Source: a virus (taxonomy: Duplodnaviria > Caudoviricetes). Taken from it: DNA of 50,610 nucleotides. The position numbers and the translations under genes were made by a program. How positions within the stretch are numbered: position 1 is the stretch's first letter; each line of letters opens with the position of its first letter. Under the pieces are notes generated by a model, which was not told where the DNA came from, did no database searches, and saw only the letters and a list, made by a program, of their open reading frames with translations. Below are positions 1 to 50,610 of the stretch, piece after piece. The stretch covers positions 1 to 50,610 of the IMG/VR virus record IMGVR_UViG_3300003406_000182. One strand, given 5' to 3'.

Positions 1-1185
1 ATGCCTCTCTCTGATGTCGTGTGCCGCAACACGCGGCCGGCCGAAAAAGCGAAAAAGCTTGTCGACGGTAAGGGGCTCTACCTCTATGTCGCACCGAGCG
101 GCGGCAAATTGTGGCGTTGCGACTATGCGTTTGCGGGCAAACGGCGCACGGCCAGCTTCGGCAAATATCCCGCAGTCAGCCTGGCTCAGGCGCGGGGAAA
201 GCGGGATGATCTGAAGCAGGCAATCGCCGAAGGGCGCGATCCGGCAACACCCGAGAGCCGCGGCGCAACTTTCGAAGAACTGGCGCGCGAATGGTTTAAG
301 GCCAATGAAACGAAGTGGGAAACCAGCTACTCGGATCGCATCTGGCGCCGCGTCGAACGCGAAGTGTTCCCAACGCTCGGGCCGAAAGGAGTGGCCGAGA
401 TCGAGCCGCGAGAAATCCTCGCCGTGTTGCGGTCGGTCGAGAACCGCGAGGCCATCTACTCGGCTCGCCGCATTCACCAGATGGTCAGTCAAGTTTTCAA
501 GTACGCGATCGTCAGCGGGCACTTGAAGCACAATCCTGCTGCGGATCTAAACGTCGCTTTGAAGGCTGTGCCGAAGGCGAAAGGGCGTGCTGCTCTGACA
601 GCCGCCGATCTCCCCGAGTTCTTCAAGAAGCTTCGCGCAACGCCGATGGAGGAGTCGACGCGCTTCGGGCTCCTGGCGGTCGCGCACGCCTTCGTCCGCA
701 CCAACGAAATCCGATTCGCCAAGTGGGGAGAATTCGACTTCGAGCGCGCAATATGGACGATCCCCGCGCCGCGAATGAAGATGAAGCGGGAACTTCGGGT
801 GCCTCTCAGCCGGCAGGCGGCTGCCATCTTCCTTCGACTTCGCGAACTGGCAGGCAGCAGCGAGTGGGTGCTGCCAGGCGTACACGGTAGGCCGGTGAGC
901 GAGAACTGTTTGATCTATGCGCTCTACCGCGTGGGCTACCACAGCCGGGCGACCGTCCACGGGTTTCGGGCAACGGCATCGACGATCCTGAACGAATCGG
1001 AATTGTTCGACCCACTGGCGATCGAACACCAGCTTGCCCACGCTCCGAATGATGCGATCCGGGCTGCCTACGACCGCGGCGAGCGGTGGGACAGCCGCGT
1101 GAAGATGATGCAGTGGTACTCCGACCTGCTCGAAGGCTACGAGCGGGATGCGGTGAGGAACGATTTCGCGGATTTGCTGGAGTGA
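1..1185 (+). CDS. int: Tyrosine recombinase, P4-like phage integrase with N-terminal arm-binding domain
   Basis: N-terminal DGKGLYLYV..SGGKLW..FGKYPAVSLAQAR arm domain; catalytic R (FVRTNE), HGFR, LAH and Y (AAYD). Confidence 0.96.
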   Translation: MPLSDVVCRNTRPAEKAKKLVDGKGLYLYVAPSGGKLWRCDYAFAGKRRTASFGKYPAVSLAQARGKRDDLKQAIAEGRDPATPESRGATFEELAREWFKANETKWETSYSDRIWRRVEREVFPTLGPKGVAEIEPREILAVLRSVENREAIYSARRIHQMVSQVFKYAIVSGHLKHNPAADLNVALKAVPKAKGRAALTAADLPEFFKKLRATPMEESTRFGLLAVAHAFVRTNEIRFAKWGEFDFERAIWTIPAPRMKMKRELRVPLSRQAAAIFLRLRELAGSSEWVLPGVHGRPVSENCLIYALYRVGYHSRATVHGFRATASTILNESELFDPLAIEHQLAHAPNDAIRAAYDRGERWDSRVKMMQWYSDLLEGYERDAVRNDFADLLE

Positions 1186-1241
1186 AAAGCGGACGGGCTC
1201 TAGCGCATACGCTCCGCAGAGTTCTGCTTAGCACCCGTCCG
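1186..1241 (-). terminator. GC-rich branched hairpin, likely terminator between int and the antisense RNA
   Basis: GCGGACGGG (1189-1197) pairs with CCCGTCCGC (1233-1241) and encloses two small hairpins; followed by TTTT on the minus strand. Confidence 0.5.
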
Positions 1242-1366
1242 CCATTAAACCGGACACTTCTTGGTTATTCCACTCTTGGGTGTGAACCGGTTTCCCGGCG
1301 AGCCGTCGCTGAAGTCCGTCTATGCGACCAGAATAATTTAATCCGAGCGACTGCGAAAAGCAAATT

Positions 1367-1441
1367 AGGCGGCCCTCGAAGGATTCGAACCTCCGGTCCC
1401 CGCTTTGCAGGCAGGAGACTTCCCACAGTCCTCGCCGGGCC
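1367..1441 (-). tRNA. Non-canonical tRNA-like gene with anticodon GCA (Cys), or pseudo-tRNA
   Basis: Minus strand: GGCCCGGCG AG GACT-GTGGGA-AGTC T CCTGC-CTGCAAA-GCGGG GACC GGAGG-TTCGAAT-CCTTC GAGGGCC G CCT. D, anticodon and T arms pair; acceptor stem is imperfect; discriminator is G; no encoded CCA. Confidence 0.7.
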
Positions 1442-1548
1442 TCAACAGGCGGCATTACCCGCCGAAATCATTGTCGCCTCCATCCCTTGATTGCGTCACA
1501 CCACTCGGGTGAAAATCACTCAATAATCTCCCAATATCCCACATTCGC

Positions 1549-1576
1549 TTGAAAGTCACGTAAAAAGTGATATTGC
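1549..1576 (+). promoter_or_regulatory. Sigma70-like promoter with a TCAC-N7-GTGA box in the spacer, upstream of alpA and the terminase genes
   Basis: TTGAAA-gTCACgtaaaaaGTGA-TATTGC. Confidence 0.5.
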
Positions 1577-1600: not shown

Positions 1601-1783
1601 ATGGAACTCGACCGTTTTCTCCGTGTCAGCGAGGTCATCGAAGCGACGACACTCTCGCGAGCGGAAATCTATCGCCGCATGCAGAAGGGCGAATTCCCAC
1701 GCCAGCATCGCATCTCACACAAGCGCGCCGTCTGGCGGCAGAGCGAGATCATAGCATGGCAGGAGCGCGTGACGCATGCCTGA
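1601..1783 (+). CDS. alpA: AlpA-family excisionase / DNA-binding protein
   Basis: RFLRVSEVIEATTLSRAEIYRRMQKGEFPRQHRISHKRAVWRQSEIIAW is the AlpA pattern; GGAG RBS before ATG 1601. Confidence 0.9.
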   Translation: MELDRFLRVSEVIEATTLSRAEIYRRMQKGEFPRQHRISHKRAVWRQSEIIAWQERVTHA

Positions 1784-2483: not shown

Positions 2484-4650
2484 GACCATGCGTCCGCCGA
2501 CGCTCGACGAGTTGATCGACGCAGCGCCGTTCCCGTCCCTCGAAGCCCTGATCGCCAAGAGCGCGGAGTTGTTCAGCCCCAATGAGCGGCTGACGGTCAC
2601 GGAGTCGGCTGAGAGATACACGAAACTCGGCAGCGGCTCGGGTCGATCGGTCCTGTGGAATCTGACGAAAACACCCTACATCGCCGAGCCACAGGACACG
2701 CTCACCAGTCTCGATTATCGCGGCATGATCTTCGTGGGGCCGAGTCGTACGGGGAAAAGTGTGATGGCCTTAAATTGGGTCACTCATACTGTCATGAATG
2801 ACCCCGACGACATGCTCCTTGTTCACACCGACTCGAAGAACGGCCGCAAATGGTCGAAGGGCGAATTCGATCGTTACCTGATCGCATCGACCGCCGTGCG
2901 CCAGCGACAGCTTACGGCGCGGCAATACGACAACACGTTCGACAAGCAGTTCAAGTCGGGGATGCGCTTCAACCTCACCTTCCCCACGTCGAGCAACCTT
3001 TCGGCCATCACGGTCGGCAAGGTGTTCTTCATGGATTATGATCGCATCAGCGACGACACGGAAGGCGAGGGCAACCCCTACGACCTCGGCGCCACGAGAA
3101 CGCGCACCAAGGGACGCTTCGGCATGACGGCGGCGGAAAGCTCGCCGAACCCCGACAAGGAAATGCCTGATCCGAAGTGGACGCCCGACAGTCCGCATGC
3201 CGCGCCGCCCGCGCCAGGCATCTTCGAACTCTACAATCGCGGTGACAGGCGCTGCTGGTATTGGCCTTGCCCCCATTGTGGGGAGTATTTCGAAGGCCGG
3301 TTCGAGCATCTGCAAGGGTGGCAGGATAAGCACGACATGGCTGACGCGCTTGAGTCCGTTTACATGGCCTGCCCGGCCAACGGCTGCGTGATCGAGCCGC
3401 ATGAGAAGGAGCGAATGAACGCCCGTGGCATTTGGGTGCCTGACGGCGGTTGCGTCACGCGCGACGGCGAGATTGTCCCGATCGATGGGATGAAGATCGT
3501 CCGATCCAAGATCGCCTCCTTCTGGCTCAAGGGGCCGGCTGCCGGCTATTTCTCCTGGGCCGATCTCGTTGAAGCCTACATCATTGCACAGCGTGCATAC
3601 GAGGAGACTGGCGACGAGGGGCCGCTGCGCAAGACTGTCACGACCGATCAGGGGATGTACTACATCTCGAAGTCGCGACTGTCGGAGCGAACCCCCGAAC
3701 AGTTGCGTGAGCGCGCGGAAGATTGGGGATCTACCTCCGATAAACCCACGGTCCCCGAGGGTGTGCGTTTTATCATCGCCACGGTCGACGTGCAGGGAGA
3801 CGGCTTCGTCTGCCAGACGACCGGCTTCATGCCGAACGGTGATGCTGTCGTCATTGACGGCTGGAAGATCAAGTCGTCCGACCGATTGGACAGCGACGGG
3901 AAGAACCAGCCCGTTGATCCGCGAGCCTTCGCCGAGGATTGGGATATGCTCGTGCCGCTCGTGCTTGAGAAGACCTACGAGCTTGGCGACGGCAGCGGCC
4001 GGCATATGGGCATCCGCATGGCCGGCGTCGACGGCTACGGCATGGAGGGCGTGACCGTCCAGGCGTATCGCTTCTGGCAGCGTTTGAAGGCGCGCGGCGA
4101 CGGAACCCACCGCCGATTCGCCGTGACCAAGGGCGAGCCGAGGAAGGACTGGCCGATCGCCAAATCTGTGATGACGGAAGTTGGCGCCGGCAACAAGCAC
4201 GCGCTCGTGCGCGGCGCCATTCCTCGCATCCATTTCGGCTCGACCCTGGTGAAAGACGCGGTGGCGAATCTCATGGCTCGCCGAATCGCGGCCGAGGACG
4301 GGGAAGAGGGCGGTGGTAAACTGCGCTTCCCGCAATGGATGCCGAAATGGTTCTATTCGCAGTTGACCAACGAAATTCGCACGCCGAAGGGATGGGAGAA
4401 GCTCGGCAGTCGGCGAAACGAAGTGTTCGATCTCACGTCCTATGCCGTGGGTCTGGCCTATCGCCCGATCGAGGGCAACGAGTTCCCGTGGGTGCCCATC
4501 CATTTGCAGCGCATCAATTGGAAGCAGCCGCCCGCATGGGCCGCACCGTGGAATGAAAATGAGCTTGTGTTCGGCACCGTGGGAACGGCCGTGAAGGTTG
4601 AGGCACCAAAGAAATCTACTTTGTCTGATCTTGGTAATCGGCTGGCCTAG
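2470..4650 (+). CDS. Terminase large subunit (lambda gpA family)
   Basis: Walker A GPSRTGKS, Walker B FFMDYD, ESSP motif, YWPCPHCG zinc knuckle, TVDVQ nuclease motif, RNEVFD. Confidence 0.95.
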   Translation: MTIHKTMRPPTLDELIDAAPFPSLEALIAKSAELFSPNERLTVTESAERYTKLGSGSGRSVLWNLTKTPYIAEPQDTLTSLDYRGMIFVGPSRTGKSVMALNWVTHTVMNDPDDMLLVHTDSKNGRKWSKGEFDRYLIASTAVRQRQLTARQYDNTFDKQFKSGMRFNLTFPTSSNLSAITVGKVFFMDYDRISDDTEGEGNPYDLGATRTRTKGRFGMTAAESSPNPDKEMPDPKWTPDSPHAAPPAPGIFELYNRGDRRCWYWPCPHCGEYFEGRFEHLQGWQDKHDMADALESVYMACPANGCVIEPHEKERMNARGIWVPDGGCVTRDGEIVPIDGMKIVRSKIASFWLKGPAAGYFSWADLVEAYIIAQRAYEETGDEGPLRKTVTTDQGMYYISKSRLSERTPEQLRERAEDWGSTSDKPTVPEGVRFIIATVDVQGDGFVCQTTGFMPNGDAVVIDGWKIKSSDRLDSDGKNQPVDPRAFAEDWDMLVPLVLEKTYELGDGSGRHMGIRMAGVDGYGMEGVTVQAYRFWQRLKARGDGTHRRFAVTKGEPRKDWPIAKSVMTEVGAGNKHALVRGAIPRIHFGSTLVKDAVANLMARRIAAEDGEEGGGKLRFPQWMPKWFYSQLTNEIRTPKGWEKLGSRRNEVFDLTSYAVGLAYRPIEGNEFPWVPIHLQRINWKQPPAWAAPWNENELVFGTVGTAVKVEAPKKSTLSDLGNRLA

Positions 4651-37686: not shown

Positions 37687-37968
37687 TCACGCCATCCCGA
37701 GGGCAGCTTTGTAGAGATCGAGGATGGCTTCCGCCTCCTGGCGCTCTGCCGCGTCCTTCTTGCGCAAACGGACAAGCGTGCGCACTGCGGGCACGTCAAA
37801 ACCGGTCCCCTTCATTTCCGCGTAGACTTCCTTGATGTCGTCGGCGATCGTCTTCTTTTCTTCCTCAAGACGTTCGATGCGTTCGATGAATGCGCGAAGC
37901 TGACCGGCAGCGACGGTCTGGCTGCTGTCCGTCAGATCGTCGTCGGGTTCGTTGTTCGGATAAGCCAT
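37687..37968 (-). CDS. gapR: GapR / DUF2312 nucleoid-associated protein homologue
   Basis: [56 protein letters not shown]. Confidence 0.93.
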
Positions 37969-38020
37969 ATTCAATCTCTCCATCAGTTGAGAATCACGAT
38001 AAACGTGAAATTACAGCCGG

Positions 38021-38278
38021 TCAATATGAATTGAGCCGAAGTTGAGTATTATGCGCGATGAAGCTGTCGACGGATAGATTGCGTATGGATTCACGGTCAT
38101 AGTGTCTCTCGTCGGGACGCGTCCGATAGCCGTGTTTCTCGCAGACGCGTTCGACGGTGCGCCGAGATAGGCCGGTCGCCTTGGCGAGATCCTGTTGCGA
38201 ACAATCCCATCCCACGGACTCACCGTGGCGGCGGACCAGGAAGCAACGAGCGAGGGCGCGGAAGCGGGGGTCAGCCAT
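38021..38278 (-). CDS. Small HTH DNA-binding protein
   Basis: SQQDLAKATGLSRRTVERVC helix-turn-helix. Confidence 0.7.
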   Translation of the reverse strand: MADPRFRALARCFLVRRHGESVGWDCSQQDLAKATGLSRRTVERVCEKHGYRTRPDERHYDRESIRNLSVDSFIAHNTQLRLNSY

Positions 38279-38802
38279 CAGCGAGAACCCCCCCCCCTGA
38301 TGGAGGATAAACTGTCGAAAGTGAATTTGGCTGGATCGATCGTAATGCTCGTTTTCTCCCGCATCCCGATTTCGGTGATTGGGGCCTTGGGCTCGGGGTA
38401 CTTGTCGAACAGCCCATCGACGATAGTCTGCAGGTCGCTACGGACTTTCGACAGATTGGCCTTGGGTGGCCGGTCGTCGTTCAGCATGTTCTCGATCATG
38501 GCGTCACGGAGGACGACGAGCGATGCTATGGCCTTGGTTATGTGGGAAAGGCCCGCTTCTCCGAAGGTCACATCCGGGTCGAGGTCTTCGCCGTCCCACC
38601 ACTGGTCGATGTGGCCCTTGGCGGCGTCGACGTAGACGGAGGCGCGGACACCCGCAGATCGAAAATTGTGTCTGCCATATTTCAGCGCACCTTCAAGTAG
38701 TGCCACGCCCAATTCGGCGACGACCGTGGCGGGTACGGGCGTGTACTGGCGCCACTTGCGGACGCCTACATTGTCCTTCGGATTGCTCAACTTCGTGTTC
38801 AT
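38278..38802 (-). CDS. DUF5664-family protein (dATP/dGTP diphosphohydrolase N-terminal-like)
   Basis: NPKD..G..K, GALKYGRHNFR, Y.DA..GH...WWDGED.DP..GLSH and DDRP motifs. Confidence 0.85.
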   Translation of the reverse strand: MNTKLSNPKDNVGVRKWRQYTPVPATVVAELGVALLEGALKYGRHNFRSAGVRASVYVDAAKGHIDQWWDGEDLDPDVTFGEAGLSHITKAIASLVVLRDAMIENMLNDDRPPKANLSKVRSDLQTIVDGLFDKYPEPKAPITEIGMREKTSITIDPAKFTFDSLSSIRGGGSR

Positions 38803-49452: not shown

Positions 49453-50610
49453 ATGACCTTCCTACATCTCGGCAATGGCGCCGCTATCCCGTATCGCTAC
49501 CTTTCCCGTCACGTGGGAATCTTCGGTGCAACGGGAACCGGTAAATCCGTCACGCTTGGCGCCATTGCCGAGCGTGCGCCTTGCCCGATTCTGATATTCG
49601 ACGCGAAAGGCGACCTTGAGTCCCTTGCGTCGACTCTCATTCGGCCGGCTATGCGGATCGATGCAATGGGCGCCGATCTACTAGCACGCGCCCTAGACCT
49701 ATCCGAAGCACAAGCCGGCGCCCTTCAGATTGCCCTCGCATGGGCCGAAGACTGCAACCGCGGCGTTGCCACGCTCGCGGATCTGCGCTGCCTGCTTAAC
49801 GATGCGCTGCAGCACGATCTAAGCGGCGCCTACGGTCTCATATCCCCGATATCCGTTGCGGCCGTCCAGCGTGCCCTATTGCGGCTGGAACGGCATTCCC
49901 CGTGGACTTTCACCGCGTCGACGTTCGATCCGCGCGACACGGCCGGAATCGCGGTCTACGCAGCTGCCGAACTGGCCAGCGTGCCAGGTCTATATGGCGC
50001 GTTTGCCGCCCATGTGCTCGACTCGCTTTATCGCGGTCTCGGGGAAGTCGGCGACGTGGCAGCACCCGGACTCCTGGTTATGATCGACGAAGCGCATTTG
50101 ATATTTGACGGTGCGAGTCCATCCATCGTGCGGCGCATAGAACAAATCACGCGACTCATTCGTTCGAAGGGAGTCGGCCTGGTCTATGTGACGCAATCGC
50201 CTTCGGATCTACCGGCCGCGATAGCCGGGCAGCTGGCAACGCGGATTCAACATGCTTTGCGCGCATCGACTCCGCAGCATCTCAAAGCGCTTAAAGCCGC
50301 GGCCGAGACCATGCCCGGCAACATCGCTGCCGCGGATATCCTGGGACTCGGAACCGGGCAGGCTATCGTTTCCATTCCAGATGCGGCCGGCAAGCCCTTG
50401 CCAGGTCGCTGCGTTGCCATACAGCGCGGCAAGGTCGCTTTGCATGGCGTAGGGCTTCCTGAGCCTGTACAGCCTGCTAGGGCGCCCATGGCGGCAGATG
50501 AGCCTATCCCCGAGCCTTCGGCGCCCATGCCTCGCCCATGGTGGCGCTATGCTGTCTGGACGGCCGCGGCGCTATGGGGACTCGTGCTGATAGGCCACGC
50601 GTTGCCTTAG
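49453..50610 (+). CDS. HerA/FtsK-superfamily ATPase (DUF853/YjgR-like) with a C-terminal TM segment
   Basis: RH..I.GATGTGKSVT Walker A, DAKGDL, L.EVGD...P.L..IDEAHLIF, EQ..RLIRSKGVG...VTQ.P.D and RIQHALRA; Pro linker then WWRYAVWTAAALWGLVLIG. Confidence 0.88.
   Translation: MTFLHLGNGAAIPYRYLSRHVGIFGATGTGKSVTLGAIAERAPCPILIFDAKGDLESLASTLIRPAMRIDAMGADLLARALDLSEAQAGALQIALAWAEDCNRGVATLADLRCLLNDALQHDLSGAYGLISPISVAAVQRALLRLERHSPWTFTASTFDPRDTAGIAVYAAAELASVPGLYGAFAAHVLDSLYRGLGEVGDVAAPGLLVMIDEAHLIFDGASPSIVRRIEQITRLIRSKGVGLVYVTQSPSDLPAAIAGQLATRIQHALRASTPQHLKALKAAAETMPGNIAAADILGLGTGQAIVSIPDAAGKPLPGRCVAIQRGKVALHGVGLPEPVQPARAPMAADEPIPEPSAPMPRPWWRYAVWTAAALWGLVLIGHALP

Follow-up and report, generated by a model that had tools for sequence, protein, structure and literature searches.

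The window analysed here is the full 50,610-nt stretch, a provirus record with an estimated completeness of 75%, in which an integrase gene and an AlpA-family gene are followed by terminase, portal, head and tail genes. Between the first two genes lies a series of features on the opposite strand, centred on a short tRNA-shaped element:

1..1185, plus strand: tyrosine integrase gene (int; phrog_1)
1188..1243, no strand assigned: strong hairpin right after the integrase stop codon (-32.6 kcal/mol, z -2.82)
1255..1369, minus strand: AU-rich trailer plus a spacer of weak structure (fold z -0.25), including a small hairpin with a GAAA loop at 1300..1287
1370..1441, minus strand: tRNA-shaped element of 72 nt (G1 = 1441, G73 = 1370), delimited by ARAGORN and by a homologue in locus L087
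1442..1481, minus strand: leader with a Shine-Dalgarno-like GGAGG, an ATG, a 9-codon mini-ORF and a GGCGG/CCGCC hairpin (1463..1448), recognised by motif recurrence
1531..1559, minus strand: predicted leftward promoter block, a GTGACW hexamer with TA after 17-18 nt, recognised by recurrence across loci
1601..1783, plus strand: AlpA-family excisionase/regulator gene (alpA; PF05930, phrog_2790)

The element points away from alpA and towards int. An earlier note had described it as placed antisense between integrase and excisionase; it does lie on the opposite strand, but it overlaps neither gene, int ending at 1185 and alpA starting at 1601. The hairpin at 1188..1243, which was not called in the terminator scan, likely separates the convergent int and leftward transcripts. 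On the other side, the 3' end of alpA overlaps the start of terS (1776), an excisionase-like gene thereby heading the packaging operon, and alpA was found shortly upstream of terS in most relatives. A metagenomic host contig (L090), 100% identical to the window over 3911 nt, carries the prophage inserted at a host tRNA-Leu(CAG) gene (L090 872-956), with attL in this gene approximately 165 bp upstream of int and outside the window.

Read on the minus strand from 1441 to 1367, the sequence runs from G1 to G73 and continues as C-C-T; it comprises a 7-nt anticodon loop (CU-GCA-AA), a canonical T-loop, an irregular acceptor junction and a 6-nt D-loop containing GG, with no encoded CCA. ARAGORN called it as tRNA-Cys(GCA) at 1368-1441 with a score of 108.5, the runner-up candidate in the window scoring 93.3, and returned no matches in 40 window shuffles (dinucleotide blocks). 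The cloverleaf with its CU-GCA-AA loop and T arm, as described in the earlier note, was thus recovered, and the further particulars given there (two acceptor mismatches in a 7/5 register, 4 nt before the D-stem, G73 and a CCT end) were all confirmed: the opposed purines are G6/A67 (6/67) and G7/G66 (7/66), and the D-stem is GACU/AGUC. The check with tRNA finders and Infernal proposed in that note gave a divided answer, as the ARAGORN score was accompanied by no Rfam family at gathering score in the scan of the window, by no Rfam tRNA match at gathering score for the copy in L087, and by folds no more stable than those of shuffles (z -0.16 and -1.16); at minimum energy, the window copy takes the shape of a rod and not of a cloverleaf. 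The top Rfam match of the element, below gathering, was tRNA-Sec (25.4 bits, E 0.01), an identity that was dropped in view of the missing long arm. Contigs from 4 of 17 sequencing runs displayed no differences, with coverage that excludes positions 1377-1448.

The sole true homologue found lies at 3173..3102 of locus L087, in a prophage of Manganibacter manganicus JH-7, and occupies the same position; the same irregular tRNA-shaped gene is common to two distantly related prophages of rhizobia-like bacteria. The two copies are identical at 64/72 positions, against 450/663 nt (68%) in the adjacent terS (31/64 at fourfold sites; binomial 3e-5 for element identity versus terS identity) and 4/8, 5/10, 9/20 and 11/30 in the flanks, and the edges of conservation are sharp at G1 and G73. 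Stems hold four of the eight differences and the variable loop two; the remaining two, C32U and A37U, are in the anticodon loop. All four stem differences preserve pairing, with 21/21 pairs of the 5/6 model described below being kept; they comprise a compensatory pair in the acceptor (G2-C71 to A2-U71 in L087) and two shifts from wobble to Watson-Crick pairing (U-G to U-A in the anticodon stem, G-U to A-U in the T-stem). Eight random changes broke no pair in 2% of trials, and did so with at least four stem changes in 0.4%. L087 likewise retains the mismatched junction, G73 and the lack of CCA, and since all three are kept, decay appears unlikely. Random decay without compensatory changes among homologues had been named beforehand as the outcome that would speak against the mimic reading, and the homologue, in a comparison of two sequences only, shows the reverse. 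The covariation sought in the earlier note is thin because only two distinct sequences are available; with two sequences the shuffle control of the covariation tool (241/500) is uninformative. The high identity of the element could in part stem from recent module exchange.

In L087 the element is accompanied by a complete, permuted two-piece phage tmRNA (2710-3094, minus strand; tag ANDNFAHEMAVAA) with a long intervening segment; the tmRNA starts 7 nt after the element, and its CCA end is 100 nt from G73. The tmRNA of the host M. manganicus is separate and different (L101; tag ANDNYAEARLAA). Within L087, the 3.5 kb preceding terS yielded no integrase match.

Homologues were searched for in several collections. 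Viral pattern scans gave 0, 26, 13, 0 and 3 matches, none of them a homologue, whilst a genome pattern scan gave 0 with a pattern too strict even for the Manganibacter copy, and the single match of a metagenome pattern scan was the identical host contig. Within the GTDB samples, in which genome G294 was left unscored, 1/400 family genomes and 1/401 order genomes matched, both being genome G001 itself; the family of G003 yielded 0/401, and a repeat family draw, largely overlapping the 400-genome sample, 0/373. Covariance model R2 again retrieved G001 among genus genomes (1/151), and on the collected loci both R1 and R2 gave high scores only for the known copies, other tRNAs reaching at most 31.5 bits. 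BLAST against phages and plasmids returned T-arm-sized matches only, one of which (H65) is an ordinary-looking tRNA gene, and the integrase-based search found relatives at 30-41% only.

The acceptor/T-arm region can be drawn in several registers, with a constant 12 nt from T-loop to discriminator, a variable loop of 3-5 nt and an acceptor-to-D-stem connector of 2-6 nt, varying with the register. By calculated energies, which ignore tertiary structure, a 5-bp acceptor with bulged A67 and a 6-bp T-stem was best in both copies (-30.2 kcal/mol in the window, -29.1 in L087), the 7/5 register with two mismatches gave -26.5 and -25.6 kcal/mol, and the 8/4 register with a bulge gave -25.1 and -23.3 kcal/mol. 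The 5+bulge/6 register is also the two-sequence consensus and nearly matches what the L087 copy adopts at minimum energy. The 8/4 fold offered as an alternative in the earlier note scores worst of the cloverleaf registers by these energies, a ranking from two copies between which the acceptor junction is invariant; in favour of 8/4, the 3' strand of the element resembles a rhizobial tRNA-Cys acceptor plus one extra G.

Major determinants of cysteine identity are U73 and the GCA anticodon, according to the accessible part of a published identity survey (PMC9976931). The chromosomal tRNA-Cys genes of G001, G002, G928 and G003 carry U73-CCA in 4/4 genomes and resemble the element in GCA, a short variable loop, G1-C72 and a canonical T-loop; both copies of the element differ from them by G73, the lack of an encoded CCA, the 6-nt D-loop, the absence of a regular 7-bp acceptor and of the U8/A14 core in canonical numbering (no U precedes the D-stem), and the L087 copy also by U37. 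Overall, 44/74 aligned columns are identical between the element and the tRNA-Cys gene of G001. At position 37, a purine occurs in 176/179 distinct ARAGORN tRNAs of the fetched loci and U in 3/179, the L087 copy among them. GCA is retained in both copies, which is not significant in itself (P 0.29). In the identity table of the same survey, as far as accessible, G73 is listed for Ser, Trp, Asp, Asn and Gln (PMC9976931); SerRS would want a long variable arm and the others different anticodons, and the Trp acceptor pairs are not matched by the element.

The Arg set (A20, C35) is partly matched under ARAGORN D-loop numbering. Arginine identity also prefers U or G at position 36. One full-length CysRS match was found in G001 and none in the prophage, and the same holds for a CCA-adding-family gene, present in G001 and not in the prophage; since G001 has this gene, CCA could be added after trimming, and the missing CCA is compatible with charging. 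Cys codons amount to 53/9423 in the genes counted. Taken on sequence grounds, G73, the lack of U8/A14 and, in the homologue, U37 speak against a functional tRNA-Cys, as the earlier note had proposed from G73 and the irregular junction, both of which are kept in the homologue; U37 and the missing core bases make us lean towards an RNA that would be uncharged and non-decoding.

Leftward transcription would begin at the block at 1531..1559, which lies back to back with the alpA promoter region. The GTGACW block recurs in 12 loci chosen by hand, 11/12 of which have TA 17-18 nt further on; because a sigma-70 consensus scan found no leftward promoter and missed the block, we infer a promoter here only from this recurrence. 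The mini-ORF of the leader stops just before G1 of the element and its length is not conserved across loci, being 1-2 codons in several loci and 9 in the window. The GGAGG-ATG-hairpin leader was found in 8/22 loci examined; across the collection it was noted in the window, L002-L007, L074, L076, L079, L087, L088 and L104, ahead of unrelated cargo, and covariance model R1 matches the leader of L104. This conserved leader could be an antitermination, stabilising or minigene element. A Cys-sensing leader peptide, considered as the mini-ORF of the window ends in a Cys codon, was rejected since the ORF is not conserved. The trailer at 1255..1369 is not conserved in L087, where the tmRNA occupies its place.

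The slot left of alpA was compared in relatives collected through terS; apart from the loci compared, terS relatives P0001-P0005, 77-91% identical, were also identified. In total, 22 loci of up to 900 nt each were examined (the window and 21 relatives), with L065-L069 omitted as close kin of L064, and L070, L073, L085 and L086 as truncated or devoid of an alpA match. The cargo of the slot is variable and sits on the leftward strand: an operon with a 680-aa ORF in L002-L007, other ORFs elsewhere, a canonical tRNA-Asn with CCA in L075, a tRNA-Gln with CCA in L088, the phage tmRNA beside the element in L087, and non-coding structured stretches in some loci. T-loop hairpins occur in 6/22 slots, against a single one, inside the element, in 101 kb of both window strands. 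In L104 the leader of the window is found almost unchanged and is followed by modules, the last of which is a tRNA-like RNA whose D and T arms are intact while its anticodon arm has collapsed. Arrays of structured RNAs with several T-loop hairpins were observed on the minus strand of L104 (~280-690), L079 (~2530-3010) and L075 (~2955-3050), none of which has an Rfam match.

Another conserved non-coding RNA, with a long GC closing stem, was observed in L080/L013, L106 (RcCWillis 1265-1509) and L107 (RcSalem 1383-1554). It occupies the gap between int and the excisionase gene in Rhodobacter RcD phages and in a relative, is unannotated in their records and, in L013, has no Rfam match at gathering score.

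Among known irregular tRNAs, the selC* tRNA-Cys and the (8/4) and (9/3) allo-tRNAs, some of which occur in alphaproteobacterial phages, are described in the accessible text of Mukai et al. (PMC5389517). The element shares with them a possible non-7/5 acceptor branch and a 12-nt acceptor/T strand, with selC* the GCA anticodon and with many allo-tRNAs G73; unlike them, it has no long variable arm, D tetraloop or second CysRS, it carries G73 where selC* has U73, and its best register is 5+bulge/6 and not 8/4. The parallel to 8/4 tRNAs drawn in the earlier note stands insofar as 8/4 can be drawn, but the known ones with G73 or GCA have, in the accessible material, the long variable arm that is absent here (PMC5389517). 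The irregular polycistronic E-loop tRNA1 resembles the element in a short variable loop and clustering with tRNA-like RNAs and, depending on the register drawn, may do so in extra acceptor-D nucleotides, in a comparison made by description (PMC5389517; the same group has reviewed irregular tRNAs, PMC7609411). According to the same accessible text, it has U73 (T73 in four supplement rows) where the element has G73, is attributed to acidobacteria, lies near toxin-antitoxin genes and, in the one example tested, was left uncharged by GlyRS and ThrRS from E. coli (PMC5389517). The 15-nt D-arm word of the element is absent from the supplement of that study. Because the long variable arm or the U73 features fail, the element is irregular-tRNA-like and yet outside allo-tRNA and selC* and, judged on the accessible material, outside E-loop tRNA1. 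No description of it was found in the accessible literature, mainly openly accessible journals, nor does the accessible part of the RcD-cluster phage paper mention such an RNA (PMC8601537). The element is real and conserved, an apparently new irregular tRNA-like RNA whose function is a prediction.

Our tentative explanation, with a probability of about 0.38, is that the element is a tRNA mimic that is processed but not charged, and that it acts as a decoy towards tRNA-attacking or tRNA-sensing host enzymes. The cloverleaf, G73 and the irregular junction are all conserved in a second prophage at the same position, and relatives carry genuine tRNAs, a phage tmRNA or further tRNA-shaped RNAs in that slot. 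Transcribed from the leftward promoter, the RNA would be cut by RNase P at G1 and trimmed from its 3' end after G73, as suggested by the start and end of conservation at these bases and by the intact D-loop GG and T-loop. By known identity rules CysRS would reject G73, and no other synthetase's identity set was matched. In the weakest step, the RNA would soak up anticodon- or tail-directed nucleases during phage translation, a role chosen because the slot otherwise carries translation-supporting RNAs and because phage tRNAs have been proposed as a counter to tRNA-cutting defences (PMC10264068). The accessible text of that source argues for nuclease-resistant working tRNAs and not for decoys, with 0 occurrences of the word 'decoy' (PMC10264068). 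Its anti-defence tRNAs resemble the element in being phage-borne, in anticodon-loop changes relative to the host and in the presence of real tRNAs and tmRNA in the slot, whereas theirs are proposed to be working, nuclease-resistant molecules and the element is predicted to be unchargeable. Against a decoy, no target nuclease was identified, GCA is kept as in a decoding tRNA (at the P of 0.29 given above), the window copy folds as a rod and the promoter was missed by the consensus scan.

An intact elbow combined with missing synthetase identity would also suit the main rival reading, a tRNA-shaped processing signal, around which RNase P and 3' nucleases would cut to release or stabilise the downstream RNA, leaving the excised piece as a by-product. 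The complete phage tmRNA 7 nt downstream in L087 and the AU-rich trailers of both phages are in line with this; the downstream partner, however, is not the same in the two phages, relatives with other cargo lack the element, the trailer RNA of the window is weakly structured (z -0.25), and conservation extends over the entire anticodon stem, possibly more than processing by itself requires, so that this reading is judged rather unlikely. Unlikely, too, is a working irregular adaptor that would receive CCA, be charged weakly with Cys or wrongly (with Arg via A20, C35 and G73, or with Trp via G73, C35 and A36) and read Cys codons. In its favour are the retained GCA, G1-C72 and 12-nt acceptor/T strand, a 3' acceptor strand like that of rhizobial tRNA-Cys with one extra G (44/74 columns identical overall), the existence of other phage GCA tRNAs with G73-CCA (L033/L035, L045), and the ability of irregular tRNAs to be active missense adaptors, according to the accessible text of PMC5389517. 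Set against these are G73 instead of U73, the lack of U8 or A14, U37 in the homologue, the absence of a long variable arm for SerRS, unmatched Trp acceptor pairs, the lack of a dedicated CysRS (the prophage has no match, and G001 a single full-length one) and the scarcity of Cys (53/9423 codons in the genes counted). A more far-reaching proposal, which we also consider doubtful, is a new cloverleaf class with an acceptor of 5 bp, a bulged A, a T-stem of 6 bp, a connector of 5 nt and a D-stem stacked directly on the anticodon stem; it would be a dedicated tRNA mimic of temperate alphaproteobacterial phages, serving either as a nuclease decoy or, charged with the wrong amino acid (Arg through A20, C35, G73), as an adaptor miscoding Cys codons, and would count among a larger group of tRNA-shaped RNAs exchanged via a single prophage slot.

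The earlier note had also suggested a regulatory RNA analogous to P4 CI. The P4 CI and P1 C4 RNAs have target sites in their own transcript, are processed by RNase P and act in immunity. As small structured prophage RNAs likely processed from a longer leader transcript they resemble the element, which follows a conserved, predicted leftward promoter and a leader, beside alpA, in a slot that holds another closed structured RNA in L080, L106 and L107. An immunity RNA of this type, pairing with its own transcript and controlling termination, is nevertheless improbable here: the element has a true tRNA T-loop and anticodon loop, no complement of at least 6 nt common to both phages was found within 250 nt upstream or 300 nt downstream, no 8-nt complement is shared in the rightward transcript, no Rfam C4 match was obtained, and the element is missing from most relatives, which would be odd for a core immunity factor. 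Equally improbable is a decayed tRNA-Cys pseudogene spread by recent phage-phage exchange, with which the failed Rfam gathering score, the folds no better than shuffles and the rarity of the element (one homologue in all searches) would agree; eight differences that break no pair and include one compensatory pair, the abrupt limits of conservation at G1 and G73, and identity to rhizobial tRNA-Cys in only 44/74 columns speak against it. The adjoining tyrosine integrase could have pointed to an attachment-site remnant, which is practically inconceivable because the host contig places the insertion at tRNA-Leu(CAG), beyond int as seen from the element, which refutes it for this prophage; the element is also full-length and unlike the host tRNA-Cys.

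Immunity that targets tRNA is found widely, and phages are known to answer it with a working tRNA that is resistant; a selected and apparently unchargeable tRNA shape, if true, would represent a different answer, or else a tRNA-like processing signal in a phage. The element is directly testable, because one copy sits in a named cultured strain beside a phage tmRNA. Annotation tools label this conserved non-canonical RNA as a plain tRNA-Cys, and the int-alpA slot of related prophages is a place to seek more tRNA mimics.

Some minor observations concern other loci and the remainder of the window. The GCA tRNAs of L033/L035 (1500-1574, minus) and L045 (1500-1579, minus) are phage genes with A1-U72, G73-CCA and a Trp/Gln-like acceptor end. 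A nearby ORF in L033 is, from its appearance, presumably TROVE/Ro60-like. A tRNA-like element with a T-loop and a GCAA loop, not called by ARAGORN, lies at ~1460-1545 (plus) of L031, in the early-gene region of a viral contig. The window also encodes a GapR-like DNA-binding protein (37687-37983, minus), a dATP/dGTP diphosphohydrolase (38278-38802, minus) and, at the record end, a HerA-like ATPase (49453-50610, plus).
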